Source: Archangiaceae bacterium
Lineage (GTDB): Bacteria > Myxococcota > Myxococcia > Myxococcales > Myxococcaceae
Assembly (NCBI GenBank): GCA_043750125.1
Contig: JAYVCD010000067.1
Location: 1 to 33,537 of the forward strand
Reading direction: 5' to 3'
Length of the DNA stretch: 33,537 nucleotides
The translations under genes and the position numbers were made by a program. Below are positions 2,348-27,465 of this stretch, one piece after another. Under the pieces are notes generated by a model. It was not told where the DNA came from and did not search any database. It worked only from the letters and a program-made list of their open reading frames with translations. Each line of letters starts with the position of its first letter. Positions within the stretch are counted from its first letter, which is position 1.

Positions 2348-4405
2348 TCAACCTCCGGGGCTCTTCGCCTTGAACTTCTCCTTCAGGTTGGCGAAGAAGT
2401 TTTGTTCCTTCTCATCGGGGGGCCCGGCCGGAATTCCGGCCAGATCGATGAGCTCGACCATCGCGTCGGGCAGGTCGTCCAGGAAGCGCGAAGGCGTCCG
2501 CTGCAGCTCCCGTCCGCGCTTGATCCGCATCGCCGCCCGGGTCAGCACCAGCCGCTCGCGGGCCCGGGTCATGCCCACGTAGCAAAGCCGCCGTTCTTCC
2601 TCAGGGTTGGGAGGTTCCCCCTGCATCCCCGAGTGGGGCAGCAGGTCCTCTTCCAGGCCCACCAGGAACACCAGCCGCCACTCGAGTCCCTTGGCCCCGT
2701 GCAGGGTCATCAACGTCACCCGCCCGCTGTGGCCGTGCTCGTGCTCGTCTTCCTCTTCCCGGGTGTCCAGCGTCAGTCGGTTCAAGTACGTCAGCAGGCT
2801 CGCCTTGGGCGATTCCCGCTTTTCGTACGCGTCCAGCGACTGCAGCAGCTGCCCCACCGCCTTCACCTTCCGATCACCCGCCGCCAGGGACAGGGTGTTG
2901 CCGCGCGTCGCCGAGTCGAAATCGATTTCCGTCAGCAGCCGCTGGGTGACCGAGGCCAGGTTCCCCTTGTCAAACAGCTTCCGGTACCGATCGATCAACG
3001 CGCAGAACTCGACCACCTTGTCCGGAGCGCCCTTCGGCAGATCCGGCACCTCGGCCGCCCCTTCGAGCGTGTCCCAGAGCGGAGTCTGGCTTTCCACCGA
3101 ATGCGCCGTCAGCCGCTCGAGCGTCACATCTCCGATTCCGCGTGGGGGGACATTGACGATTCGCAGCAGCGAGACCTCGTCGCGGCGGTTGGCGATCACC
3201 TTGAAGTAGGCAATCACGTCTTTGATTTCCCGCCGATCGAAGAATTCCTGGCCCCCGACCACCTCGTAATAGACCTGCTTCTCGCGCAGCGATTCTTCGA
3301 TCGGGCGCGACTGCCCGTTGGTTCGATAGAGAATTGCGATCTCGTCCGGAGGCAACCCTTCGACGATCGCCTTCTTCACTTCGTGGGCGACGTACCGCGC
3401 TTCTTCCTCTTCGCTCGGAGCGACCACCACCTGAATCAGCGGCCCGCCCTTCTCTTCAGTCCACATCCGCTTCGCGCGCCGTTCCGGGTTCTTCTCGATC
3501 ACCGCGTTCGCCGCATCGAGAATGATCGGGGTGCTGCGGTAGTTCTGCTCGAGCCGCACCGTCTTCGCGCCCGGAAAGTAGGTCTCGAACTCGAGGATGT
3601 TCTTCACCTCGGCGCCGCGCCAACTGTAGATGCACTGGTCGTCGTCCCCCACGACGCAAACGTTGTGTTTCTTCCCCGCCAGGTGACGCAGCAGCTGAAG
3701 CTGGGCGCGGTTGGTGTCCTGGTACTCGTCGACCATCAGGTACCGGAACCGCTCGACGTACTTCTCTTTCACTTCGGGGTATTTTTCGAAAATCGTCGAG
3801 GGAAAAACCAGCAGGTCATCGAAGTCGACCGCGCCCTGCGCTTTGAGCGCCAATTGGTACAGCGGGTACACCAGGTGGGCCACCAGGTCGTAGTCATCGC
3901 CTTGCCCCTCGGGCTTCGGCTGCAGCCCCAAGGTCTCATCGGGCCGGCCCGGAGGAAGGCCCGAGTTCTTCGCCCGGCTGATCAACGTCAGCACCTTGCG
4001 GCCGTCGAACGCGCGGTCGTCGACGTTCCGCTCGCGCATCGCCCGCCGCACAATCGACACCTGGTCCCCGGTGTCGGCGATCGCAAACTTCTTCGGCCAG
4101 CCCAGCTTCCCCAGATGCTCGCGCAGCACCTCGGCCCCAAAAGCGTGAAAGGTCGACAGCGTGACCCCGGCCGCCTTCTGGCCCGCCATCTTCACCACCC
4201 GGTCTTTCATCTCGGAAGCCGACTTGTTGGTGAAGGTCACTCCCAGAATTGCGCGGGGGGGAACCTTCTTCTCGAGCAGGTGAACGATTCGGTGGGTAAT
4301 CACCCGGGTCTTCCCCGAGCCGGCCCCGGCCAGCACCAGCAGCGGCCCTTCGGTGGTCTTCACCGCCTCGCGCTGCGGCGCGTTCAGGTGGCTCAAATCA
4401 ATCAC
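2348..4405 (-). CDS. uvrD: UvrD/Rep/PcrA superfamily 1 DNA helicase
   Basis: LNAPQREAV, AGAGSGKTRV, VDEYQDTN, VGDDDQCIYSWRGA, LEQNYRST, MTLHGAKGLEW, EERRLCYVGMTRA. Likely start GTG 4405 (VIDLSHL) after GGAAAGGGG. Exact subfamily not resolved. Confidence 0.95.
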   Translation of the reverse strand: MIDLSHLNAPQREAVKTTEGPLLVLAGAGSGKTRVITHRIVHLLEKKVPPRAILGVTFTNKSASEMKDRVVKMAGQKAAGVTLSTFHAFGAEVLREHLGKLGWPKKFAIADTGDQVSIVRRAMRERNVDDRAFDGRKVLTLISRAKNSGLPPGRPDETLGLQPKPEGQGDDYDLVAHLVYPLYQLALKAQGAVDFDDLLVFPSTIFEKYPEVKEKYVERFRYLMVDEYQDTNRAQLQLLRHLAGKKHNVCVVGDDDQCIYSWRGAEVKNILEFETYFPGAKTVRLEQNYRSTPIILDAANAVIEKNPERRAKRMWTEEKGGPLIQVVVAPSEEEEARYVAHEVKKAIVEGLPPDEIAILYRTNGQSRPIEESLREKQVYYEVVGGQEFFDRREIKDVIAYFKVIANRRDEVSLLRIVNVPPRGIGDVTLERLTAHSVESQTPLWDTLEGAAEVPDLPKGAPDKVVEFCALIDRYRKLFDKGNLASVTQRLLTEIDFDSATRGNTLSLAAGDRKVKAVGQLLQSLDAYEKRESPKASLLTYLNRLTLDTREEEDEHEHGHSGRVTLMTLHGAKGLEWRLVFLVGLEEDLLPHSGMQGEPPNPEEERRLCYVGMTRARERLVLTRAAMRIKRGRELQRTPSRFLDDLPDAMVELIDLAGIPAGPPDEKEQNFFANLKEKFKAKSPGG

Positions 4406-15701: not shown

Positions 15702-18323
15702 TCAAGCGCGGCGGCGACGAAGCGCGGCGGACATCGCCAACAACCCCAGCGACCAGAGGCTCACGTCCGAGAGCCCTGCCGAGCAGCCGGCTTTGGCTCC
15801 TTCGGCAACCGCGGCGGCGGTCTGTTGTTGCTCCGGACGAATCGCCGAGGTCAACCCGCGCCACTTCGCTTCCCCCACGTTCCCGACCCCATCGCGCACC
15901 CTGACGGTCAGCCCACCGCGGGCCTCGACCGCCGACAGCCCAATGTCGCGTGCCGGGCCGTACTCGGAGAACGGGCCCTCGCCCAGCCCGTAGGAGTATT
16001 CGAGCTGCTCGAACGGGGTAATCAAATCTCGCGCAGTCAGGGTGAGCAGATCATGCTCTTTATCGGCGGTGAGCTTGAGCTCGGGCGGATCCCAATCGAC
16101 CAGGAAGCCGACCTGCACCGGCTCGCTGATCCCATGCCCATCTTCCTCGACCCGCGAACGGACCTCGATGAGGTGCCTTCCCTGAAGCAGGAACACCGGG
16201 TGCTCAACCACCAGCTCGTCGTTGAACGCGGGGAAGAACGTGCTCCAGGTTCCGTCGTCGACCCGGAACGCGAACTCAGGGGTGCCCGTCTTCCCCAGCG
16301 CGTGCACATCGAGAATGGCGCGCGGAATCGGCAACCCCTTTCCGGTGGCGCGCATCTGCGAGGCCGCCGGAATCTCTGAGCGCTTGAGGAAGGCTGTGGT
16401 CCTGGGCGAGCTCACCGCGCAGGCGGCCAACAGCGGCTTCATCTCGGCGTAGAGCGCCAGATGGTTGTAGAGCTTCGTTCCGGCAACGTTGCCGATGCCC
16501 TTCACTTCGTTCACCTTCAGCTTGAACTGGCCGATCGCCGGCAGGGCGAAGGGCTTGAGCGCGCTGGCCACCGCCGGCTCGGCCAGACCGATCACCGCGG
16601 GGATCAGGTCGGCGAGCACCTTTGGATCTTCGGCGAGCAGCTCGCTGTTGCTGGTGCGGATGTTGGCGATCAACATCTTCAGATCGCCAATCGCCGGGGT
16701 CACCGAGGAACAGCCGTTGAAGACCAGCGAAATGGGCAGCGAAATGTCGGCGGTCAGCGAAAACAGCCGGGTGAACCGTTCGTCGATCATCGCGTAGAAA
16801 TCGACCGTCACGTCCGGCAGCTTGACCAGCAGCAGCGGCTCAATCGGTTTCTTGGTGATGGGGTCGAAGGTCCCCTGGCCCACGTCGACCACCGGGGCCT
16901 TGTCCGGGCGCAGCACGATCATCATCGGAGCGTCCTTCCCATCGCGGGTGGCAAGCTTTCCCAGCGAAGGAAGAAACGTCTTGAACAGCCCTGAGTTGAG
17001 CAGCCCGACCGTCGAGCTGTTCATCTGAATGCACAGCGCCCCCGACTGGTGCGCCTGGTGGAACGCGAGGTTCAAGAACTGGGAGCTGATCGCAACGCCC
17101 GCGTGGTAGGCGCCCTTGGTCGGGTCGGCTCCGAGGTCGATGTCCGGCGCGGGAATGGCGATCATCGGGGGCGCGGCCTGGGGCGGCACGCACGGAGCGA
17201 CGGTCACCGCATTGAGGCCTGCCCGGGTGCCGATGTTGATCCCCTGATCCACCGAGACCGAGCTGCCCGCGGCGACCGACAAGTCGAGCATCGACTCGGG
17301 CGGGACTCCGAAGTTGCCCAACAGTCCACCCAGCGCCATCCGACCTTCGACCCCCAGGAACCGCGGGACGCACTTGCTGGTCACGGTGTCCTTGCAGGTT
17401 GAGGTCGCCGCATCACACGTCGACGCCGCGCCGGGGAACTGGGGGCAGGCAGGCTTTCCGACGCCGCACTGCTCACAAGATTGACCGGCAATCGCCTTGT
17501 TGATCTGGGTCTGAAGCAGCGGCGAGATCAGGCCCAGCAAAAGGTTCTTCAAGGGCGCCCAGTCCGCCAGGCCGCAGAGCAGATTGCCGCAGGTGTTCTC
17601 GCCCGAAATGTCGATGTCGGCCGGGTCGAGGCATTCGGGCTTCGACAGCGCTCCGGCGGCGCCACACACCGAAGTGCCCTTGAGGGGGTTGACCACTTCG
17701 AACGACAGCCACTTGTCCCACTTGGTGTCGATCGCGAACTTGATCTGGGCGGTGATCTTGTTCGTCCCCGGCGCCGTCGCGGTGGTATTGAAACGAACGC
17801 TGCAGTACGGCTTGCTCAGGAACAGGCACAACGCCGAGTTGCTGGTCTCGGTGCGGGCGTAGATTTTTCCGGTGTCGAGCGAGATCGAGACGCTTCCTTC
17901 CAGAATGGCCGGGGCCTTGGGCGTCAGCAGAAAACCGGTGATCGTCACCTGGACGTTGGCCGGCAGATCGGCCGCGGTGCAATTTCCGTCAAGCTTCCCC
18001 GTGCCGCCCGCGCCTCCCTGGTCGGCGATGGTGACCTTCCCGAGCACCGGCACGGTTTGCTCCATGCACGCGACAGGAATGGTGAGGGTGCCCGTCGGGG
18101 CGAACATCTTCACCAGCTCTTGCCAGTTGCTGTTGAGGTAGTTGATTCCCGCCGGCGACAAACGAAGGTTGATCGCGTTGTCGGTCTTTGGCCCGACGTA
18201 CCGACCGGTCGGAATCGCGCCCAGCCCGCCGCAGGCCGAGCCCGAGCCTGAACAGCTGATGGCGAACATCACGCCCAGAGTGACCGCGACGAATTCGTGG
18301 AAGCGAATGGAGCGACGGATCAT
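15702..18323 (-). CDS. Large Cys-containing surface protein with lipobox and MYXO-CTERM tail; BPI/LBP (TULIP)-like motifs
   Basis: N-terminal FAISC; C-terminal AGCSAG-hydrophobic-RRRRA; internal INLRLSPAGINYL and GVAISSQFLNLAFHQAHQSGAL. Confidence 0.85.
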   Translation of the reverse strand: MIRRSIRFHEFVAVTLGVMFAISCSGSGSACGGLGAIPTGRYVGPKTDNAINLRLSPAGINYLNSNWQELVKMFAPTGTLTIPVACMEQTVPVLGKVTIADQGGAGGTGKLDGNCTAADLPANVQVTITGFLLTPKAPAILEGSVSISLDTGKIYARTETSNSALCLFLSKPYCSVRFNTTATAPGTNKITAQIKFAIDTKWDKWLSFEVVNPLKGTSVCGAAGALSKPECLDPADIDISGENTCGNLLCGLADWAPLKNLLLGLISPLLQTQINKAIAGQSCEQCGVGKPACPQFPGAASTCDAATSTCKDTVTSKCVPRFLGVEGRMALGGLLGNFGVPPESMLDLSVAAGSSVSVDQGINIGTRAGLNAVTVAPCVPPQAAPPMIAIPAPDIDLGADPTKGAYHAGVAISSQFLNLAFHQAHQSGALCIQMNSSTVGLLNSGLFKTFLPSLGKLATRDGKDAPMMIVLRPDKAPVVDVGQGTFDPITKKPIEPLLLVKLPDVTVDFYAMIDERFTRLFSLTADISLPISLVFNGCSSVTPAIGDLKMLIANIRTSNSELLAEDPKVLADLIPAVIGLAEPAVASALKPFALPAIGQFKLKVNEVKGIGNVAGTKLYNHLALYAEMKPLLAACAVSSPRTTAFLKRSEIPAASQMRATGKGLPIPRAILDVHALGKTGTPEFAFRVDDGTWSTFFPAFNDELVVEHPVFLLQGRHLIEVRSRVEEDGHGISEPVQVGFLVDWDPPELKLTADKEHDLLTLTARDLITPFEQLEYSYGLGEGPFSEYGPARDIGLSAVEARGGLTVRVRDGVGNVGEAKWRGLTSAIRPEQQQTAAAVAEGAKAGCSAGLSDVSLWSLGLLAMSAALRRRRA

Positions 18324-18404
18324 GGGGGGAGTCGACCTCTACGAACCAGCTTTAGGAAGGCGGCCGGGAAAAGACAGCCCCACTCATTCTAGACGGACTT
18401 CGAC

Positions 18405-19277
18405 TCAGCCTGCGAGCACCGGCAACGAATGCCCCGAAGTCTCTTTTCGCAGTGCGTCATTCAACCGCCCTGAACGGAACGGCTCGAGATCCACCGCGAC
18501 GAAAGTAAACCCTACCGCCTTGATCGCCCCGTCGAGCTGAAGGCGCAACGTCTCGTCCAGCAGGCGAGGCATCTCTTCGGCGGCCACTTCCAACCGGGCG
18601 ACTTCCCCGTGGAAGCGAACCCTGAAATTCTTCAAGCCCAGCGCGCGAACCGCCTTTTCGGCGCCGGCGATCTTGTTCAGCCGCTCGACGGTGACCTGCG
18701 TTCCGTACGGCAAACGCGAGGCCAGGCACGCCAGCTGGGGCTTGTCCCAGGTCGACAGCCCGAGCTTCTTCGACCAGGCCCGAATCTGATTCTTGGTCAG
18801 CCCCGCCTCGGCCAACGGCGAGAGCACGCGGTGCTCATGGGCGGCCTGATGGCCCGGCCGATGGTCCTTCTTGTCGTCGGCGTTGAAGCCGTCGAGCACC
18901 GCGGACAGGCCCAGGCGTGCGCACGCCTTTTCGGTGAGGGTGTACAGCTCGGTTTTGCAGAAGTAGCAGCGGTTCGACGGGTTGGCCGCGTAGCGCGGAT
19001 CTTCGAGCTCGTGCGAGTCGACCAGCTCGTGCCGGGCGCCCAGCCCCACCGCCAGCGCCCGCGCCTCTTCGGCTTCGTCCGCAGCGACCGAAGGCGAGAT
19101 TGCAGTCAGGGCCACGCACTTGTCGCCCAGCTCGTCGACTGCGATTTTCAGCACGAAGGTCGAGTCGACGCCGCCCGAAAAGGCCACCAGCGCCGAACCC
19201 AATTCCCGAATTCGCACGCGAAGCGCCTGCACAGCCGTTTCCGACGCAGAGCACAGCGCCTCGATGTCTAACTCCAC
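18405..19277 (-). CDS. larE: LarE-family PP-loop ATP-dependent sulfur transferase
   Basis: VAFSGGVDS, NRCYFCK, DGFNADD..DHRPG, SPL, WDKPQLACLASR.PYG, FRVRFHG..ARLEV. Confidence 0.95.
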   Translation of the reverse strand: MELDIEALCSASETAVQALRVRIRELGSALVAFSGGVDSTFVLKIAVDELGDKCVALTAISPSVAADEAEEARALAVGLGARHELVDSHELEDPRYAANPSNRCYFCKTELYTLTEKACARLGLSAVLDGFNADDKKDHRPGHQAAHEHRVLSPLAEAGLTKNQIRAWSKKLGLSTWDKPQLACLASRLPYGTQVTVERLNKIAGAEKAVRALGLKNFRVRFHGEVARLEVAAEEMPRLLDETLRLQLDGAIKAVGFTFVAVDLEPFRSGRLNDALRKETSGHSLPVLAG

Positions 19278-19280
19278 GGC

Positions 19281-19976
19281 TCAGCGCCCCTTGCGCTTGC
19301 TCGACTCGGGCTTGGCGACCCGCGCCGCGCGCGCTGCCGGCCGAGCGACCTTGCGGGCACCCTTCGCGCCCTGGCGAGCGGCCTTCTTCACCAGCTTCTG
19401 GGGCTTCATCTTGGTGCCGGTGATGATCTTCAGCTCTTCGGCAGTCATGAAGGACAGGTCAAGCAGCGCCTGGAAGACCTTCATCGCACCGGCTTCGACG
19501 CCTTCGGAATCGGAGTGAATGACCACTTCGGCCGAGTTCGGCGGCTCGTACGGCTCGGTGATGCCGATGAAGTTGGGGATCTCACCCGAGAGCGCCTTCT
19601 TGTACTTGCCCGTGGTGTCGCGGGCGATCAGCTTCTCGGTCGGGCAGTCGACATACACCTCGACGTAACGGCCAATCGCACGCCGGTTCTCTTCGCGCAC
19701 GCCCTTGTAGGGAGTGACTGCCGCGACGAGGGTGCAGACGTGATTGCGGGTCAACAGGTCGGCGACGAAGCCGAGGCGGCGGCCGATCAGCTGGCGCTCC
19801 TCTTTCACGTCACCGCCGATGTCCTTCCACAGCTCGTCCTGCAGCTCTTCTTCGTCGAGAACTTCGACATTCCGGCCCACCTGGCGCAGCCGAGCCGCGA
19901 GGTAGTTCGCCGTCGTCGTTTTTCCAGCCCCCAACATCCCCGTCAACCAGATGGTGAAGCCGCCAATCTGCGCCAT
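19281..19976 (-). CDS. cysC: Adenylyl-sulfate (APS) kinase family protein with Lys/Ala/Arg-rich tail
   Basis: IWLTGMLGAGKTT, EVYVDCP..L..RD..G.YKKA..GEI.NF.GI..PYEPP; AGGAG Shine-Dalgarno. Confidence 0.9.
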   Translation of the reverse strand: MAQIGGFTIWLTGMLGAGKTTTANYLAARLRQVGRNVEVLDEEELQDELWKDIGGDVKEERQLIGRRLGFVADLLTRNHVCTLVAAVTPYKGVREENRRAIGRYVEVYVDCPTEKLIARDTTGKYKKALSGEIPNFIGITEPYEPPNSAEVVIHSDSEGVEAGAMKVFQALLDLSFMTAEELKIITGTKMKPQKLVKKAARQGAKGARKVARPAARAARVAKPESSKRKGR

Positions 19977-20100
19977 GTCGTCTACTCCTGAGTAAGTTCA
20001 CGCCTGAAAAATCGGGGCCTTATAAGGCATCTCACGTTTTTTCGCCAGCTTAGGATGTCAACTTCTAAAATAGGTCAAGCACCTGATCACACAAGTCTTT

Positions 20101-20544
20101 TCATTGGGGTGACAGCGGGGCCTCCACAAAAGCCTTCCCGTTCCACCGAAACAGCGCCGCCCGCGCCGCCCGGCCCTGATCGACCGCCACGACCAGGTAC
20201 GCGGCATCGGGCAGCAACGGCTGGCCATCGGGCGCCGCCATCGCTGCGTCTTCGGCCGAAAAATAGGCTCCCACGTCACAATGCGAATGAAAGATGCAGC
20301 TCAACCGCGCTTTGCGTTCGTCCGCCGCTTCGCTCAAACGGTGAAATTCCATCGGGTTGAACAGGTAGGCGGTGCGATTGGTGCGGGGGTACGTAATGGG
20401 ATCCTGCGCGTGGTACTTGTCGTAGACGTTGGCCATCGGGTGAACGCGAAACGTCCCGTCGGTTTCTTCAAAGACCAAACCGCAGCCCTCTTCCGGGTAT
20501 TTCGTTTCCAGGCAGGCAAAGATCTCGGTCAGGTCGGCAATCAT
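20101..20544 (-). CDS. mec: JAMM/MPN+ metallopeptidase (Mec+-like)
   Basis: YPEEGCGL and IFHSHCDVGAYFSAED fit E-xn-HSH-x7-S-xx-D; start overlaps the cysM stop. Confidence 0.92.
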   Translation of the reverse strand: MIADLTEIFACLETKYPEEGCGLVFEETDGTFRVHPMANVYDKYHAQDPITYPRTNRTAYLFNPMEFHRLSEAADERKARLSCIFHSHCDVGAYFSAEDAAMAAPDGQPLLPDAAYLVVAVDQGRAARAALFRWNGKAFVEAPLSPQ

Positions 20545-21476
20545 CAGTACGGGAACCTCGCTTTGGTGCGGCCGGGCTCAAAGTAGCGGTCGGCGCGATC
20601 GCAGAACATCGCCACCACCACCCCCTTCTGTCTCTTTTCGCTCAAGCCTCGGGCCACCTGCCAGGCGCCGGCCATCGCGGCTCCGGACGAGTGACCGACC
20701 GCCAGGCCTTCGTCTTTGAGCAACCGATCGGTCATGTCCCAGCCCGCGTCGGTGGTGATCGACAGCTTCGAGTCGTGAATCGACGCATCGTAGATGGGGG
20801 GGACGATCGAGCTGGCCAGGTGCTTGAGCCCCTCGAGGCCGTGCATCGGTTCGGCCGGCTCGACTGCGACAATCTGAATCGCGGCGTTCAGCTCTTTGAG
20901 GCGCTTGCCGGTGCCCATCACCGTGCCGGTGGTCCCCAGGCCCGCGACGAAGTGGGTCAACTTCCCGCCGGTCTGTTCCCACAGCTCGGGCGCGGTGGTC
21001 CGGTAATGGGCGCGCGGGTTCGACGGGTTGCTGTATTGGTCCGGGTAGAAATAGAGGCCCGGCGCTGCCTTGAGCTCGCGGCGCAGGTGGCGAATCGCTC
21101 CGTCTGAGCCCTCGAGGGGGTCAGAGAAGATGATCGTCGCACCGTAGGCCGCCGTGATCTGCTTTCGAGCGGCAGAGACGTTCGCCGGCATCACCAGCGT
21201 GACCGGAAAGCCCAGGGCCGCTCCGATCCACGCCAGCGCGATGCCGGTGTTCCCGCTGGTCGAGTCGATCAACCGCGTTCCCTTCTCGAACCGCCCGTCG
21301 GAGAGCGCGTCTTGCACCATCTGCAGCGCGGCGCGGTCTTTCACGCTGCCGCCGGGGTTGAAGTACTCGAGCTTCGCGAAGAGCTCGACCCCCGGAGTGT
21401 CCCGCCCGATCCGTTCGAGCTTGATCAACGGCGTATTGCCGACCTGCTCGGCGAGCGTGGCGACCCGGGTTTTCAC
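20544..21476 (-). CDS. cysM: PLP-dependent cysteine synthase (CysM type)
   Basis: VGNTPL, AKLEYFNPGGSVKDRAA (Schiff-base Lys), STSGNTG, GLGTTGT, GHSSGA; likely GTG start 21476 overlapping the upstream stop. Confidence 0.93.
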   Translation of the reverse strand: MKTRVATLAEQVGNTPLIKLERIGRDTPGVELFAKLEYFNPGGSVKDRAALQMVQDALSDGRFEKGTRLIDSTSGNTGIALAWIGAALGFPVTLVMPANVSAARKQITAAYGATIIFSDPLEGSDGAIRHLRRELKAAPGLYFYPDQYSNPSNPRAHYRTTAPELWEQTGGKLTHFVAGLGTTGTVMGTGKRLKELNAAIQIVAVEPAEPMHGLEGLKHLASSIVPPIYDASIHDSKLSITTDAGWDMTDRLLKDEGLAVGHSSGAAMAGAWQVARGLSEKRQKGVVVAMFCDRADRYFEPGRTKARFPY

Positions 21477-21988
21477 GCGTGCTCCTCGCAGCGCAACACC
21501 GAAATCGGCGGTCCGTCGAGCGCCAGCGCGCCCAACGTGTCGGCCAGCCCCAGAACGATGCGCTGCCACGCCACTGCGCCCAGCGCCTGGAGCGCCACCG
21601 AGGGCGACTCGAGGCTCAACGAGCGGACCGTGCGCGCAAAACACCGGGCACAGCCGCCGGCCCGAAAGACCACCCCATTAGATCCGACGGCCACCGCAAG
21701 CGGCTGGTCTTCGGGAAATTCGCAAGGCACCCGCGCGACCAGGCCCGCGGGCGCCGCAGAGGGAACGGCGTCGGGGTTGAAATCGGCCAGAGCAGCACCT
21801 GCGAAGAACCCCGCGGTGGTTCGGGTGTGAATCGGCGTCCCGCCCGCGGCAAGGTACGCGGCAGTGATGGGCAGGCCATGAACGAGGACGGGGGCTGCGA
21901 GCAGCGCTTCCTGCCCCTGCCCGCCCACAGGCTGCAGCAACACCTGCCGCGCATAGCGCTGAATCTGAGCTTCCGAGAGCGTTTTCAG
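21473..21988 (-). CDS. Degenerate ThiF/MoeB-like (pseudo-E1) protein; probable start CTG 21988 (first canonical start GTG 21943)
   Basis: In-frame LKTLSEAQIQRYARQVLLQPVGGQGQEALL..VLVHG, AAYLAAGG, FNPD, CARC and terminal CEEH; no GxGGLG, SNLxRQ or DxxD. Confidence 0.75.
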   Translation of the reverse strand: MKTLSEAQIQRYARQVLLQPVGGQGQEALLAAPVLVHGLPITAAYLAAGGTPIHTRTTAGFFAGAALADFNPDAVPSAAPAGLVARVPCEFPEDQPLAVAVGSNGVVFRAGGCARCFARTVRSLSLESPSVALQALGAVAWQRIVLGLADTLGALALDGPPISVLRCEEHA

Positions 21989-22257
21989 CCTCCGGCGATC
22001 GCGGGAATGATCGACAAGGTGTCGGTGTCTGCGACGGTCGTCTCGAGGTTCTTCAAGAACCGAATGTCTTCGTCGTTGTGAAAGACGTTCACGTAGCGCT
22101 TGAGGCCGCCTTTCTCATCGAACAGCCGGGTCCCGATGCCCGGGCACGCCTTGTCCAGACCCCGCAGGACATCGCCCACGGTCCCGCCGTCGACTTTCAC
22201 TTCGGCCTGGTTCTGGGTGTAGCTGCGCAGCGGAGTGGGGATGCGAACGATGGGCAT
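21985..22257 (-). CDS. cysO: Ubiquitin-like sulfur carrier (CysO/MoaD/ThiS family)
   Basis: VRIPTPLR.YT, YVNVF.N.EDIRFL..L.T, C-terminal IIPAIAGG; lies with cysM and a JAMM gene. Confidence 0.92.
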   Translation of the reverse strand: MPIVRIPTPLRSYTQNQAEVKVDGGTVGDVLRGLDKACPGIGTRLFDEKGGLKRYVNVFHNDEDIRFLKNLETTVADTDTLSIIPAIAGG

Positions 22258-22270
22258 GGTTTTCCTTTGA

Positions 22271-22507
22271 TCAAGCGCGAATCAGCAGGCGACTCTTACC
22301 CTCGGAAGCCTCGAGGCACAGCACTTCATGACCGTCTTCCCGCACGCTTCGGGGCACGTTCTTCAGCGGCTCTTCGCCGGTCAGCCACACTTCCAGCACT
22401 TCCCCCGGGGCAAGGCGTTCGAGCGCCAGCTTCACCCGGACATAGGTCATCGGGCAAACTTCAGCAGTGATGTCGACCGACGCAACGGGGAACACGCCGG
22501 GACTCAT
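22271..22507 (-). CDS. tusA: TusA/SirA-family sulfurtransferase
   Basis: VDITAEVCPMTYVRVKLALERL..GEVLEV..NVPRS..GHEV. Confidence 0.93.
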   Translation of the reverse strand: MSPGVFPVASVDITAEVCPMTYVRVKLALERLAPGEVLEVWLTGEEPLKNVPRSVREDGHEVLCLEASEGKSRLLIRA

Positions 22508-22516
22508 TAGCGAAGT

Positions 22517-23158
22517 TCAACCCCTGCCGCACGCCTGACAATCGGGCGATTTGTTCACCCGGACGCTGCGCGCCTTGAAGCCCAGCGCGTCGAACAAATG
22601 CAGCTGCGCCTGGCCCGGCAAGGGGTTCGGCTCGAGCGCCAGCTGGGCCTGCAGCCCGCCGATCACACCGGCCACCGAGCCCAGCACGCCGGCCTGGGCA
22701 CAGCTTTGCGGCTCGGGCGGGGGCTGATCGAACAGGCAGCGCAAGCACGGGCCGTCGGGCTGAATTCGCATCGCCTGGCCCGACAACCGCAGCACACCGC
22801 CATAGACCAGCGGAATGCGCGTTCGCACCGCGGCATCGTTGAGGACGAACTTCATCTGCCCACTGTCCGTCCCGTCCACCACCACGTCGTGCAGCTCGAA
22901 CAAGGCGTCGGCGTTCTGCGCGGTGACCTTCACCGACAGCCCCACCACCTTCAAGGCAGGAAACAGCGCGCGGAGTTTTTCCGCCGCCGAATCGACCTTC
23001 AGTCGGCCCAGGTCCGAAGGGTGATGCCAGGGCTGTCGATGCAGGTTCGAGCCTTCGACCACGTCGAAGTCCACCAGCGTCAGCAGGTCCGCCTGCGACG
23101 CCAGGGCCATCGAAGCAGGACACCCCAACCCCCCCACGCCGATCACCAGGGCCCTCAC
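22517..23158 (-). CDS. moeB: MoeB/ThiF-family E1-like adenylyltransferase lacking the N-terminal RYxRQ segment
   Basis: Starts at GTG 23158 (GTGA overlap) directly with RALVIGVGGLG; VDFD, SNLHRQ, GRLK, DGTD, CLRC, SCAQAGVLG, CQAC. Confidence 0.9.
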   Translation of the reverse strand: MRALVIGVGGLGCPASMALASQADLLTLVDFDVVEGSNLHRQPWHHPSDLGRLKVDSAAEKLRALFPALKVVGLSVKVTAQNADALFELHDVVVDGTDSGQMKFVLNDAAVRTRIPLVYGGVLRLSGQAMRIQPDGPCLRCLFDQPPPEPQSCAQAGVLGSVAGVIGGLQAQLALEPNPLPGQAQLHLFDALGFKARSVRVNKSPDCQACGRG

Positions 23159-23994
23159 ATCTGATCTCCGACGCTGAAGGAACGCTCTCCGGTGTCGGCG
23201 GCCAGGGCGAACACCCGCGCGTCGGGGCCCAGCCTCTTTGCCACCCGGCACGCCGCTTCGATTCCCGCGGCCGTGCCCGCCGAGAGCAACAGCCCTTCTT
23301 CCTTTCCCAGCCGCTCGCGCATCTTCCACGCCGCGGCGTCGTCGACGATTTCGGTCGAAGTCACCCAGGAGCGATCCAACAGTGGGCTGTGTTCCTGGGG
23401 AAGCAGGCCGTGCTGTCGGTGAGGGCGCCAGCCGGTCGCGAACGGCCGCACTTCGATCAGCAACACGTCGGGAAACCTCGCACGAAGCACCCGACCGATC
23501 GAGGTCAAGGTGGCTCCGGTTGCGACCGGCGCGACGAACGCGTCGATTCGATCTTCCGAACCCAGCAGCTCTCGGCCGACCTCTGCCATCGCTTCCAGCC
23601 GGGCATGGGGAAAACGATCGCTGAGCACTCCACCCGCGGCGCGCGCGGCGGCCAGAGCCCCTGCGCCCCCTTCGGCAAAGGCAGTCAGCGTCACCTTGGC
23701 GGCGTAGGTCAGCAGCGTCTGACGCACCTCGAGCGGCGTGTCTTCGGGAAGAAAGATTTCAACCGGTCGGCCGTTCCGCGCGCCCTGCATCGCCAGCGCG
23801 ACCGCCAGAGCACCATCGCCGGCCTCGCGCCACACCCCGTCTGGCGCGTCGCGGACCAGGTGCCGGGCCACGCGATCCATCACGGTGGCATTGGGGCTTC
23901 GCGTCTCGAGCTTGAGCCAGACGGTGCCACCGCCGTCCAGGGCCACCCGCTGAAGCTTCACCACCGGAGTCACGCGCGGTTCGTCGTCGGTCAC
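23155..23994 (-). CDS. Cysteine-synthase-fold protein lacking the PLP-binding lysine (probable pseudoenzyme); start uncertain
   Basis: TPVVKL, WLKLETRSPNATVMDRVA, IDAFVAPVATGATL, LGKEEGLLL, ADTGERS align with the CysK/CysM fold. Confidence 0.85.
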   Translation of the reverse strand: MTDDEPRVTPVVKLQRVALDGGGTVWLKLETRSPNATVMDRVARHLVRDAPDGVWREAGDGALAVALAMQGARNGRPVEIFLPEDTPLEVRQTLLTYAAKVTLTAFAEGGAGALAAARAAGGVLSDRFPHARLEAMAEVGRELLGSEDRIDAFVAPVATGATLTSIGRVLRARFPDVLLIEVRPFATGWRPHRQHGLLPQEHSPLLDRSWVTSTEIVDDAAAWKMRERLGKEEGLLLSAGTAAGIEAACRVAKRLGPDARVFALAADTGERSFSVGDQM

Positions 23995-24107
23995 GGCGGG
24001 TGGGTCTATCTGATCTGTCGTGGGGTGAAAGGGCCCCGGTAGGTCAGCAGCGACCCCCCGCCGGCCCCCGCTCTCCTCTGACGCGAGGTGGACGTGCCCT
24101 TGCACCA

Positions 24108-25433
24108 ATGACGGGAGTGACTTCCCAGACGCTTCCGCACACCCAGAAGGAAGAAGCCCTCGGAATGTTCGGCGGCTCCGCGGGAGTGCTCGTCTTCATC
24201 CCCATCGACCTGATGGTCTTCGGCTTTGTCCCCGGGCTGATGGCGCTTCGACTGGTGTGGGGCCTGTGCCTGTTGGGGGCCGGATTTTACCTGCTGCGCG
24301 CGTCGAATCGGGGCCGGCAGGTCATGGTCCTCGCCGCAGCGGTGGTCTCTTCGCTGGGGTTCCTGGGGAACGTCGCGCTGACCGGGGGCATGGCCAGCCC
24401 CTACATCATGTGGCTGACCGCGCTGTCGATGTCACTTGCCCCTACATCCCGGTCGGCCACGGCGGTCAGTGCCTCGGTCCTGGTCGTGGGAACGTCGGCG
24501 ATGTTCTTCAGTGAGCCGACGTGGGCGATCTACGCGCTCTCCGCGCTGTTCGCCGGCGGGCTGGCCCAATACACCGCGTTCCTCTTTCATCGATCGCGCT
24601 GCAACGAGACGAAGTTCGCTGCGCTGCTGTCCGATTCGGAGCGCCGGCGAAGAGAGAGCGACCGCCTCGCCGTGTTGGGTCAGCTGGCCGGAGGTGTCGC
24701 CCATGAAATCAACAACCCGCTGGGCTGCATCAAGGGAAACATCACCCACCTGCTCGAAGAAGATCTCGGTGACTCACGCCTGAGCCCCACCGAACGGGAA
24801 CAGCTGTTGAAAGAGACCCTGAGGGGAGTGGACCGGATCGCCTCGATCGTCAAAGACCTGCGCAGCTTTTCCAGCGACGAGCAGCCGGCGATCGCACCCG
24901 CGCACCTGAGGGCGGCGGTCGATGCCGCGATCGCGCTCACCTCGCTGCGGCTGGGCCAGGTCAACGCCAGGCACGAGTGTTCGGTCGATCGCGCGCTGCC
25001 CCGCGTTCTCGTTCAGCAAGAACGGCTCACCCGGGTCCTCGCCTCGCTGTTGATGAACTCGGCCGATGCTCTCGAGCTGCGAGGGCGCGGAGGACGGGTG
25101 CGCTTGCACGCTGAGCTCACCCCCGGGGGTTTGCGACTGACCCTGGACGATGATGGTCCGGGGATCGTGCCCGCCATCCTCGAGCGCGTCTTCGACCCGT
25201 TCTTCACGACCAAGCCCCCGGGCAAGGGCATCGGGTTGAGCCTGGCGCTCGCGCGGGAATACCTGACTCGAATGGGGGCGACGATTGTCGCCAGCAACGG
25301 CCCGTCGGGCGGAGCGCGCTTTTCCATCGAGCTGCGCACCGAGCCGGAGATCGTCCGGTCCCCTTCGGAAAGCGCCGACCTGTTGCACCCGCGGGTCGGC
25401 CCGGCCCTCGCACCGATGGTGCCCGCGCGCTGA
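24108..25433 (+). CDS. Membrane-bound sensor histidine kinase (HisKA + HATPase_c)
   Basis: Several TM segments, LGQLAGGVAHEINNPL, LLMNSADA, DDDGPGI, FDPFFTTKPPGKGIGLSL. Confidence 0.92.
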   Translation: MTGVTSQTLPHTQKEEALGMFGGSAGVLVFIPIDLMVFGFVPGLMALRLVWGLCLLGAGFYLLRASNRGRQVMVLAAAVVSSLGFLGNVALTGGMASPYIMWLTALSMSLAPTSRSATAVSASVLVVGTSAMFFSEPTWAIYALSALFAGGLAQYTAFLFHRSRCNETKFAALLSDSERRRRESDRLAVLGQLAGGVAHEINNPLGCIKGNITHLLEEDLGDSRLSPTEREQLLKETLRGVDRIASIVKDLRSFSSDEQPAIAPAHLRAAVDAAIALTSLRLGQVNARHECSVDRALPRVLVQQERLTRVLASLLMNSADALELRGRGGRVRLHAELTPGGLRLTLDDDGPGIVPAILERVFDPFFTTKPPGKGIGLSLALAREYLTRMGATIVASNGPSGGARFSIELRTEPEIVRSPSESADLLHPRVGPALAPMVPAR

Positions 25434-25476: not shown

Positions 25477-26757
25477 GTGGTCGACTCGTCCGACAACTCG
25501 TTCGACCCCGCCGGCAACGATCGTCGGGCGCGGGTGCGGGCGGTGCTCGAGAAGCGCCGGCTGACCCAGAACCTCTCGCCCGAACAAGTCGCCGAGTCGT
25601 GGATGCAGGAACGTTTCGTCGCCCGCGCCCGGGCCCTTTTCTACGCGCGGATGATGTTCCTCACCCTCGGGCTGTTGATCCTGGCGGTCCCCGTCTGGCG
25701 GCACTATTTCGGGATCACCGGGCCGCTGGCCTTCGGGGGGTATTTCGCGATGCTGCTCTACAGCGTCGCCAACTACATGGTGCTCGATCACCCCCAGGCG
25801 GGCCGCATCGTCAGCTACGTCACGCTTTGCTTCGACCTGTGCCTGATGGTGGTGCTGATCGCCTCGCCCCAGGTGGGAGGCGGTCTGCAAAGTCCGTTGC
25901 TGGCCACCCAGCTGCTCTTCACCACCCTGTTTGCTCTGCTCTTCCCCAAGCCGCTGGCGATCCTTCCGCCGCTGCTGGCGCTGTTGATCACCACCCGGCT
26001 CGACTTGCTGTTGGGAAGGTCCCCGACCGCGGTCGAGGTGCTGACCCTGATGTGGTACCTCGCGCTCAACTTCATCATCATCTACGTGCTCGTCTACCTG
26101 AACGAGCGCGAGGTCAGCGCCCACAAGGAAGTCGTCGATCTGCAGGGCGACCTCAAAGAGCTCGCGGTCGTCGAAGAGCGAAACCGACTGGCGCGCGAGA
26201 TCCACGACGGCCTGGGGGCCAGCCTGTCGAGCCTGATCATCCAGAGCGAATACCTGCAGACGATGGCCAAGGACGAGGCCCTGCTCAAAGAGATTGGCGA
26301 GCTCAAGGCCAGCGCTGAAGAGAGCATCGAAGAGCTGCGCAGATCTCTGAAGATGATGCGCGAGGACTTCGACCTGGGCGTCGGCCTCGAGGACTACGTC
26401 AAGACCTTCCGCGAACGGACCCAGGTCGACATCAAGTTCGAGCGCAGCGGCATTCCCGACCGGCTTCCCCCCGAGTCCCAGCTGGCGCTCTTCCGGGTAC
26501 TGCAGGAATGCCTGTCGAACGCGGTGAAGCACGCCGGGGCGAAGAAGGTCGAGGTGAAGCTCCACTTTGCGCCCAGGCATGTGTTGCTGTCGGTGCGCGA
26601 CGATGGCCGGGGCTTCGACACCAAGAAACCCAGGGTCGGTCACTACGGGCTCATCAACATGCGTGAACGTGCCCTGAAGGTGGGCGGCGAAGTGATCATC
26701 GATTCGACCCCCGGCTCAGGGGCCCACATTTCGTTCTCGGTGCCCGTCACCGCCTGA
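25477..26757 (+). CDS. Membrane sensor histidine kinase, HisKA_3 (NarX/DesK type)
   Basis: About six TM segments, EERNRLAREIHDGLG, LFRVLQECLSNAVKHA, VRDDGRGF, GLINMRER. Confidence 0.95.
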   Translation: MVDSSDNSFDPAGNDRRARVRAVLEKRRLTQNLSPEQVAESWMQERFVARARALFYARMMFLTLGLLILAVPVWRHYFGITGPLAFGGYFAMLLYSVANYMVLDHPQAGRIVSYVTLCFDLCLMVVLIASPQVGGGLQSPLLATQLLFTTLFALLFPKPLAILPPLLALLITTRLDLLLGRSPTAVEVLTLMWYLALNFIIIYVLVYLNEREVSAHKEVVDLQGDLKELAVVEERNRLAREIHDGLGASLSSLIIQSEYLQTMAKDEALLKEIGELKASAEESIEELRRSLKMMREDFDLGVGLEDYVKTFRERTQVDIKFERSGIPDRLPPESQLALFRVLQECLSNAVKHAGAKKVEVKLHFAPRHVLLSVRDDGRGFDTKKPRVGHYGLINMRERALKVGGEVIIDSTPGSGAHISFSVPVTA

Positions 26758-26769
26758 AGGAGGCAAATC

Positions 26770-27465
26770 ATGGAAGAGCCCGCTGCGGTCCCCCTCGCGC
26801 CGATCAAGGTCTACGTCGTCGAGGACCAGACGAAGATCCTCAAGAACCAGCTGAAGCTTCTCGAAGCCAGCAGCGACATTCAGATCATCGGTACCGCGCT
26901 CTCAGGCGAGACCGCGATCGAAGAGGTCCCAAAGCTTCTACCCGACGTGCTGCTGTTGGACCTGGGGTTGCCTCGCATGAGCGGCATCGATGTGACCCGG
27001 GTGGTGAAGAAGCTGGTTCCCCAGGTCGAGATTCTGATCTTCACCATCTTCGACGAAGAGGACAAAGTCCTCGAAGCCGTGAAGGCCGGCGCGTCGGGCT
27101 ACCTGCTCAAGGGCACTCCGGCCGATCGGATCATCGAGGCGATCAAGGAAGTGAAGTCGGGCGGAACCGTGATTCAGCCCAACCTCGCACGCAAGCTGCT
27201 CAAGCATTTCCGGGTCGCAGGGCCGGGCGAGGCCGAGCTTCCGCTGCTGGCCGCTGAGCCTCTGCTCAAGCCATTGTCAGAACGCGAAAAAGAAATCCTT
27301 CTGCTGATCGCCAAGGGCGTGTCGAACTCAGAGGCGGCCCGCTTGTTGACGGTCAGCAAAGCGACCATTCGCACCCACCTCGAGCACATCTACCGAAAGC
27401 TCGAGGTCACCAACCGCGTCGAAGCGGTCACCGAAGGCCTGCGCAAAGGCATCATTCAGATGTGA
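26770..27465 (+). CDS. NarL/LuxR-family response regulator
   Basis: VVEDQ, LLLDLGLPRMSGI, GASGYLLKG, LSEREKEILLLIAKG.SN..TIRTHL..IYRKLEV; GGAGG Shine-Dalgarno. Confidence 0.96.
   Translation: MEEPAAVPLAPIKVYVVEDQTKILKNQLKLLEASSDIQIIGTALSGETAIEEVPKLLPDVLLLDLGLPRMSGIDVTRVVKKLVPQVEILIFTIFDEEDKVLEAVKAGASGYLLKGTPADRIIEAIKEVKSGGTVIQPNLARKLLKHFRVAGPGEAELPLLAAEPLLKPLSEREKEILLLIAKGVSNSEAARLLTVSKATIRTHLEHIYRKLEVTNRVEAVTEGLRKGIIQM

Follow-up and report, generated by a model that had tools for sequence, protein, structure and literature searches.

Which protein might supply the N-terminal arginine segment to a bacterial E1-type activating enzyme that has lost it? This question is raised by a 33,537-nucleotide (nt) stretch of DNA from an Archangiaceae bacterium (phylum Myxococcota; contig JAYVCD010000067.1), referred to below as the window. 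An operon of nine genes on its minus strand encodes two E1-like proteins of the ThiF/MoeB type. One of them, at 22517-23158, is the active E1, which has its adenylation motifs and no N-terminal RYxRQ segment. The other, at 21473-21988, is a degenerate E1 paralogue (the partner), which has kept this segment. Between the two genes lie those for a TusA-family protein and for a sulfur carrier ending in Gly-Gly, a layout that agrees with a sequence-only reading of the window. From the complementary losses, the same reading proposed that the two proteins form a heterodimer, and this idea gained support here from the strict co-occurrence of the two forms, the absence of RYxRQ from relatives of the active E1, its conservation in the partner, the predicted fold and a model of the complex. 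We consider it likely that the operon encodes an asymmetric two-gene E1, composed of an active and a dead subunit, for a CysO-type sulfur carrier. For such a two-gene E1, the comparative and modelling support described below is strong.

The active E1 opens with VRALVIGVGGLG and begins at the first beta strand of the fold. All adenylation motifs were located: GVGGLG (23123-23140), SNLHRQ (23033-23050), K54 (22997-22999) and DGTD (22865-22876), together with the cysteine motifs CLRC (22736-22747), SCAQAG (22688-22705) and CQAC (22529-22540). We take the Cys of SCAQAG to be the equivalent of MoeB Cys187. The nucleotide site thus has its GxGGxG loop, the acidic residue after beta2, the Arg of NLxRQ, the Lys and DxxD; these motifs are invariant in 83 relatives, as are C138, C141, C153 and C207. 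Profile searches located the missing part. Pfam ThiF (PF00899) was matched with 175.8 bits (cut-off, 28.1) over profile positions 22 to 237 of 238 only, and NCBIfam MoeB (PRK05690) over positions 34 to 249 of 250 only. ThiF was the only domain found with Pfam, and no rhodanese domain was detected. No RYxRQ was found in frame upstream of the gene, where the frame runs inside the gene for a pyridoxal 5'-phosphate (PLP)-dependent enzyme. All features that the sequence-only reading had named for this protein were confirmed at the stated coordinates.

The truncation is shared by the relatives of the active E1. Among its 120 closest database relatives, none has RYxRQ before the P-loop. This loop begins no later than residue 35 in 117 of these proteins; the other three miss the P-loop pattern. 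Orthologues in related genomes, read by eye, begin a few residues ahead of GxGGLG and have no in-frame upstream RYxRQ. The N-termini read in this way were those of loci L001-L019, L024-L033, L034, L035 and L038-L041; L036 was left out and L037 is cut off. ThiF-family genes elsewhere in the genome of the bacterium gave three matches. This genome also holds a canonical rhodanese-ThiF E1 (L021, 695-1960 of contig C254) with the N-terminal segment RYRRH. Since this canonical E1 keeps its N-terminal segment, the loss is specific to the E1 of the operon.

The degenerate E1 reads LKTLSEAQIQRYARQVLLQPVGGQGQEALL... and contains the motifs RYARQ, CARC and CEEH. A Pfam search assigned it to no family at E ≤ 0.01. 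With MoeB PRK05690, residues 2-50 could be aligned to model positions 3-55 (E 4.1e-7); the score was 29.5 bits against a cut-off of 266, and the protein falls outside this family at the curated threshold. The active E1 (positions 34-249) and the dead E1 (positions 3-55) therefore cover complementary parts of one and the same model. In a three-way alignment with L021 and the active E1, the GxGGxG, D..D, SNLxRQ, Lys and DxxD motifs are deleted or replaced in the degenerate protein; a CxxC is still there, as are the long dimer helix and, at the C-terminus, a CxxH. Thus, RYARQ, the dimer helix and the Cys/His cluster are kept and the ATP-binding motifs are lost, as had been noted from the sequence. 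Without nucleotide-binding motifs, this protein cannot activate a carrier by itself. Its cysteines align with both CxxC motifs of ThiF-type E1s, and the CxxC and CxxH together are probably a structural zinc site, as judged from the conserved pattern.

A partner profile from 18 orthologues was compared with the Protein Data Bank (PDB). The best matches were ThiF (1zfn, E 2.5e-9), Uba4 (E 4.6e-8) and MoeB (1jw9, E 6.5e-5), and these matches span only the N-terminal 54 or so residues. In the HMMER alignments to ThiF (1zud and 1zfn), partner Arg14, the second Arg of RYARQ, aligns with the arginine finger, which is Arg11 in ThiF and Arg14 in MoeB. The whole protein was predicted by AlphaFold2 with a predicted local distance difference test score (pLDDT) of 94.1 and a predicted template-modelling score (pTM) of 0.89. 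With this model, Foldseek returned ThiF (1zud, E 5.2e-6), MoeB (1jw9_B, query-normalized template-modelling score [TMq] 0.68, E 9.6e-6) and then Uba4, all with a Foldseek probability of 1.00; the inactive eukaryotic subunits SAE1 and APPBP1 were weaker matches. The degenerate E1 is thus predicted to be an entire E1 domain that has shrunken, not a fragment of one. The sequence-only reading had spoken of a split E1. Because the dead copy covers the entire E1 fold, the pair is better described by duplication followed by reciprocal degeneration.

The distribution of the two proteins was analyzed next in related genomes. The degenerate E1 found matches in 45 of 61 genomes, among them 32 of the 36 in the family of the window; many of the matches outside this family span the N-terminal 50 or so residues only. 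The same 32 family genomes hold an orthologue of the active E1 (31 at E < 1e-50, and G036 with a partial, adjacent match). The four family genomes without a partner (G004, G018, G033 and G034) yielded only E1 matches of about 42% identity; these lie in long open frames and resemble the canonical E1 with a fused rhodanese domain. In total, 38 orthologous loci were opened (L001-L020, L024-L033, L034-L037 and L038-L041). Of the first 20, two run into a contig end and do not include the E1, leaving 36 E1-bearing loci; the ten loci L024-L033 represent other families of the order, L034-L037 include one from another family of the phylum, and L038-L041 come from four genomes in which the partner had no match with a profile hidden Markov model (HMM). 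All 36 E1-bearing loci have a downstream open reading frame (ORF) in the same operon that begins with an RYxRQ, RWxRQ or RFxRH segment. In L031, the partner is known only from a match with E 5.6e-4. The four loci without a prior HMM match contained the partner ORF, too. A co-occurrence check across Myxococcota had been suggested with the sequence-only reading, and its outcome is a pairing of both forms over an order or more. By this comparison, the N-truncated E1 with an RYxRQ partner is a trait of the family and not a product of decay. The partners of L038-L041 are longer (about 225 to 235 residues) and less eroded, e.g., with VVGAGELAG at the P-loop position and a retained CYSC, and they look like intermediate stages of degeneration.

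Larger collections gave a similar picture. When 1.84 billion representative sequences were searched with the partner profile, 108 proteins were found at E ≤ 1e-30 and 774 at E ≤ 1e-10, and some of the weaker matches will be N-termini of canonical E1s. In a phylum-wide sample, the partner was present in 151 of 301 genomes at E ≤ 1e-9 and in 105 of 115 genomes of the window's family (both tallies include one unpublished genome, G234). The R[YF]xR[QH] pattern was found in 135 of the 147 top partner representatives; by eye, the other 12 comprise six N-terminally cut gene calls and six variants that retain the second Arg.

Conservation within the partner is centered on the segment in question. In the 18 orthologues, the invariant or nearly invariant columns cluster in the first 50 residues, with the consensus LxExQIxRYxRQxLLxxVGGxGQxxLL. 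Across 90 sequences, conservation reaches 0.99 for both R11 and R14 and 0.97 for Q15; C113 and C167 do not vary, and C116 is conserved in 99%. Asked whether partner orthologues keep RYxRQ or decay like pseudogenes, the alignment thus answers with a finger Arg in about 99% of the 90 sequences. Fusions were also found. In several genera, the partner is joined in frame to a JAMM metallopeptidase, as in L011 (1489-2457), L034 (2380-3348) and L035 (1780-2820), and in five of eight long database forms (P0059, P0098, P0125, P0184 and P0188). In L028, a single open frame (3332-4249) encodes the active E1 with TusA fused to its C-terminus, and the ATG of the partner comes directly after the stop codon of this frame. 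When longer fused partner forms were sought, 8000 scored candidates yielded a single protein, a canonical ThiS-ThiF-rhodanese, and no E1-TusA-partner single chain; both results count for little.

Next, the two chains were modelled together with ATP, using alignments of 83 and 90 rows; the heterodimer was the sole assembly modelled. Three runs gave interaction prediction scores from aligned errors (ipSAE) of 0.94, 0.95 and 0.94, against 0.00 for the best of three controls. The runs share at least 93% of their contacts, and the pLDDT of the partner is at least 93. On the partner side, the modelled interface is formed by residues 10-15 (QRYARQ), 44-50 and 130-143 (dimer helix). On the side of the active E1, it is formed by residues 39-44 (LHRQPW, beside the phosphate-binding Arg41) and 153-172 (dimer helix). 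The structure-model check proposed with the sequence-only reading thus places QRYARQ and LHRQPW in one interface. Within the partner, conservation is higher at the interface than elsewhere (mean frequency of the most common residue, 0.64 versus 0.45; Mann-Whitney p 1.3e-4). For the active E1, the difference is not significant (0.76 versus 0.74, p 0.26). A covariation between W44 of the active E1 and F61 of the partner, noticed by eye, was dropped: in alignment A1, F61 is invariant and W44 varies. Taken at its score, the model supports binding between the active and the dead E1.

Several points weigh against an asymmetric E1. In one alternative, the truncated E1 is a self-sufficient homodimer with a dispensable finger and the partner is an adaptor for the JAMM peptidase, for CysM or for the carrier. 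According to the excerpted text of a 2026 paper (PMC13139853), the fingers of MoeB (Arg14) and ThiF (Arg11) are non-essential and TcdA lacks one, and thus the truncated E1 might work alone. The repeated fusion of the partner to JAMM would suit an adaptor, and in L016 a Leu stands at the finger position (RRFALQ). In L026, L032 and L033, the partners have only about 100 to 130 residues, i.e., the N-terminal segment and the first beta-alpha unit and little more. The profile-profile comparison of the two E1 families with hhalign was not significant (E 0.13), because the shared region is short and the remainder too diverged. The high score of the heterodimer may reflect its likeness to the solved MoeB and ThiF dimers. 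For comparison, 58 of 80 solved complexes and 2 of 110 mismatched pairs attain this ipSAE mark; these counts apply only roughly here, since our own alignments and the ligand depart from the calibration of the tool. However, the best-conserved part of the partner is its N-terminal RYxRQ segment and not a JAMM-facing surface, and its conserved residues map to the modelled interface between the two E1 chains. The heterodimer also scored far above its controls, and the N-truncation of the E1 strictly co-occurs with the partner. We therefore regard the combination of homodimer and adaptor as unlikely. Still harder to sustain is the view that the two genes are chance neighbours, that is, unrelated ThiF paralogues serving different carriers or pathways. 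The other ThiF-family genes in the genome would be in line with it, and so would the lack of the carrier gene and of CysM in several orthologous operons (e.g., L006, L011-L013 and L017). However, one of the two paralogues is dead with respect to nucleotide binding, and the pairing persists in each of the 36 loci, even where other genes of the operon vary. This makes a chance neighbourhood improbable in the extreme.

The start of the partner gene adds to the points against an asymmetric E1. In the window and its three congeners (all four genomes of the genus), and also in L016, there is no ATG, GTG or TTG 5' of RYARQ. The first canonical start is the GTG at 21943, just after the motif, and database gene calls for the genus begin the partner downstream of RYARQ, giving forms of 151-156 residues. 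Consequently, the gene might be a genus-specific relic that starts at GTG 21943 or decays, with untranslated RYARQ codons and an E1 that works without them. We consider this very unlikely. Over the ten codons of EAQIQRYARQ, the four genomes differ at five sites, all of them synonymous third positions with no amino-acid change, whereas the codons just 3' carry replacements. Because of this difference, the stretch appears to be translated. Two non-canonical codons are candidate starts. CTG 21986-21988 overlaps the TGA of the carrier gene. ACG 21980-21982 lies 5-6 nt past a GGAGG from the Gly-Gly codons of the carrier, and it occupies the position of an ATG, GTG or TTG in 14 of 19 orthologues, whose canonical start lies a few codons from a conserved Leu. 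In addition, the entire partner protein, not only its part after GTG 21943, folds at pLDDT 94, which does not suit a relic. The start at 21988 assumed in the sequence-only reading is this CTG, not a canonical start codon, and congener L003 has neither the CTG nor the ACG candidate. A programmed frameshift from carrier to partner was rejected, since the window would need -1 and the congeners +1, owing to a 1-nt indel after the stop.

With the asymmetric two-gene E1 as the preferred explanation, the following mechanism can be proposed. The active subunit would bind Mg-ATP and the Gly-Gly tail of the carrier. The dead paralogue would join it via the usual E1 dimer helix, and the N-terminal helix of the paralogue, with Arg14 of RYARQ, would enter the nucleotide site of the active subunit in trans, where the Arg may contact ATP. 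With the finger on one chain and the active site on the other, a heterodimer would have one active site. The carrier would be adenylated and then sulfurated by persulfidated TusA, which takes the place of the MoeZ rhodanese domain and is the probable persulfide donor. The resulting thiocarboxylate would be consumed by CysM, and the JAMM peptidase would regenerate the carrier, by analogy with the CysO/CysM/Mec pathway of mycobacteria. Because of the partner-JAMM fusions described above, the dead subunit may in addition act as a docking site for this peptidase. We infer the binding in the cell, the Arg-ATP contact, all chemical steps and the product of the pathway from these comparisons. The most far-reaching version, in which myxobacteria have independently evolved a two-subunit E1 made of a catalytic chain and a pseudo-enzyme that both gives the Arg segment in trans and docks JAMM, seems to us possible, short of probable. 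In this version, activation, sulfuration and recycling of the carrier would share one asymmetric complex.

The genes and sites are listed in Table 1. At several junctions of the operon, stop and start codons overlap, in the form of GTGA (two cases), TGATG (one case) and CTGA (between carrier and partner), which points to translational coupling. The two GTGA overlaps join the stop of the PLP enzyme gene to the GTG start of the active E1, and the stop of the degenerate E1 to the GTG start of CysM.

Table 1. Genes of the minus-strand operon and sites within the degenerate E1, in the order of transcription
Feature	Coordinates	Strand	Evidence and remarks
PLP-dependent cysteine-synthase-like enzyme, divergent	23155..24108	-	Pfam PALP E 2.4e-30; operon gene 1; start uncertain
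Active E1 (ThiF/MoeB type, 213 residues)	22517..23158	-	Pfam ThiF E 1.1e-51; without N-terminal RYxRQ segment
TusA-family sulfur-relay protein (78 residues)	22271..22507	-	Pfam TusA E 1.6e-19; CPxxY-type Cys (TAEVCPMTY)
ThiS/MoaD/CysO-like sulfur carrier (90 residues)	21985..22257	-	Pfam ThiS E 1.8e-12; C-terminus AIAGG right before the stop
Degenerate E1 paralogue (partner), about 169-171 residues	21473..21988	-	Motifs, match to the MoeB model, fold prediction
RYARQ segment of the degenerate E1	21944..21958	-	Arg14 = 21947-21949; HMMER alignment to 1zud/1zfn
Probable structural zinc site of the degenerate E1	21479..21652	-	C113-x-x-C116 (CARC, 21641-21652) and C167-x-x-H170 (CEEH, 21479-21490)
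CysM-type cysteine synthase	20544..21476	-	Pfam PALP E 2.8e-70; TIGR01138 cysM 344 bits (cut-off 394)
JAMM/MPN+ metallopeptidase (Mec-like)	20101..20544	-	Pfam Prok-JAB E 2e-14
APS (adenosine 5'-phosphosulfate)-kinase-family protein	19281..19976	-	Pfam APS_kinase E 1.5e-39; TIGR00455 150.5 bits (cut-off 138.7)
LarE-family PP-loop ATP-dependent sulfur transferase	18405..19277	-	TIGR00268 312 bits (cut-off 150); last operon gene

Some of the assignments in Table 1 are close to or below curated thresholds. The carrier scores 60.3 bits with NCBIfam SAMP1 (cut-off, 60), and CysM stays below the equivalog cut-off of TIGR01138. The PLP enzyme at the head of the operon reaches 123 bits with NCBIfam cysKM, far under the cut-off of 344 bits; it is a second, far more divergent cysteine-synthase-like gene, and only some orthologous loci have one. 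The APS-kinase and LarE genes are linked to the E1 pair in most of the opened loci, even without carrier and CysM. Some carrier orthologues extend beyond Gly-Gly, by one Arg in L014 and L015 and by AHAR in L016 (1973-2257), and the orthologue of L007 (994-1491) has a 76-residue low-complexity tail after Gly-Gly. In these cases, trimming by JAMM would be needed before activation. Divergent from the operon, two histidine-kinase-like ORFs (24000-25433 and 25477-26757) and a LuxR-type response-regulator-like ORF (26770-27465) were noted by eye from their translations. An Rfam scan of the window gave no match, i.e., no riboswitch or other RNA family, and a promoter and terminator scan of 18000-24600 found nothing exceeding shuffled expectation.

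Asymmetric pairing of an active with an inactive adenylation domain is regarded as a defining feature of the ubiquitin-type E1s of eukaryotes. If the two-gene E1 proposed here is real, the asymmetric design evolves readily by duplication and reciprocal loss, also outside protein conjugation, and the operon would offer a bacterial model for the emergence of the eukaryotic pairing. With 213 and 171 residues, the pair is small and tractable, and it is suited to asking what the arginine segment in trans and the dead subunit contribute. Annotation is also affected, since the partner is at present unnamed, mis-started, or called an adenylyltransferase, which it cannot be.

Compared with MoeB-MoaD and ThiF-ThiS of Escherichia coli (1JW9, 1ZUD and 1ZFN), the active subunit has the same fold and adenylation motifs, and a GG-ended beta-grasp carrier is likewise the protein to be activated. 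The N-terminus of MoeB and ThiF, including the finger Arg, aligns with the N-terminus of the partner. However, the E. coli enzymes form symmetric homodimers, with a finger and an active site on every chain and an N-terminal segment that crosses to the other subunit and completes its ATP site, whereas here the two are distributed over two gene products, presumably with one site per dimer. The mycobacterial CysO/CysM/Mec/MoeZ pathway resembles the operon in its set of genes, since a carrier, a CysM-type synthase and a JAMM peptidase are also united here in one operon. MoeZ combines a full-length E1 and a C-terminal rhodanese domain in one protein; its place is taken here by an N-truncated E1, a dead paralogue and TusA. 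Sulfuration of CysO by MoeZR is described in the abstract of PMC3227635. The PLP enzyme, the APS kinase and the LarE-like protein are additional here, and CysM falls short of the equivalog threshold (Table 1). The archaeal SAMP/UbaA/JAMM system shares a carrier type with the operon, as the score at the SAMP1 cut-off indicates, and the E1 and JAMM proteins gave weak matches to UbaA and desampylase. In contrast, UbaA is a single full-length E1, the E1 and JAMM matches lie far under the cut-offs, and the operon gives no hint of protein conjugation.

Full-text literature searches, with supplements outside their scope, found no description of a two-gene bacterial E1. A related bacterial case is BilD of the Bil antiviral ubiquitination system, in which, according to the excerpted text of a 2023 paper (PMC10557695), an inactive and an active adenylation domain form a pseudo-dimer; the same text describes every other known E1-like protein of bacteria as a homodimer. 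As described there, BilD is one polypeptide with a CYS domain and acts with an E2 in protein conjugation, whereas the E1 described here is encoded by two genes in a sulfur-carrier pathway. Another parallel is yeast Tcd1-Tcd2, the dehydratase for cyclic N6-threonylcarbamoyladenosine (ct6A). In the excerpted text of PMC13139853, a ThiF-family subunit without catalytic residues donates its finger to the active partner, and a finger mutant retained most of the activity. Unlike the pair described here, Tcd1-Tcd2 is presented in that text as a eukaryotic enzyme with a tRNA substrate, no ubiquitin-like carrier and two full-length subunits.

The eukaryotic E1s for SUMO (SAE1-UBA2) and NEDD8 (APPBP1-UBA3) pair an active with an inactive adenylation domain, as the two proteins of the operon appear to do. 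In these E1s, the inactive subunit supplies an arginine to the active subunit. The bacterial pair differs from them in having no catalytic-Cys domain and no ubiquitin-fold domain, and searches of the nine operon proteins against Pfam and NCBIfam gave no match to an E2 family. Its output would be a thiocarboxylate rather than a thioester cascade, and its inactive subunit is, with 171 residues, far smaller. The asymmetric E1 proposed for the operon presumably had an origin separate from that of the eukaryotic heterodimeric E1s.

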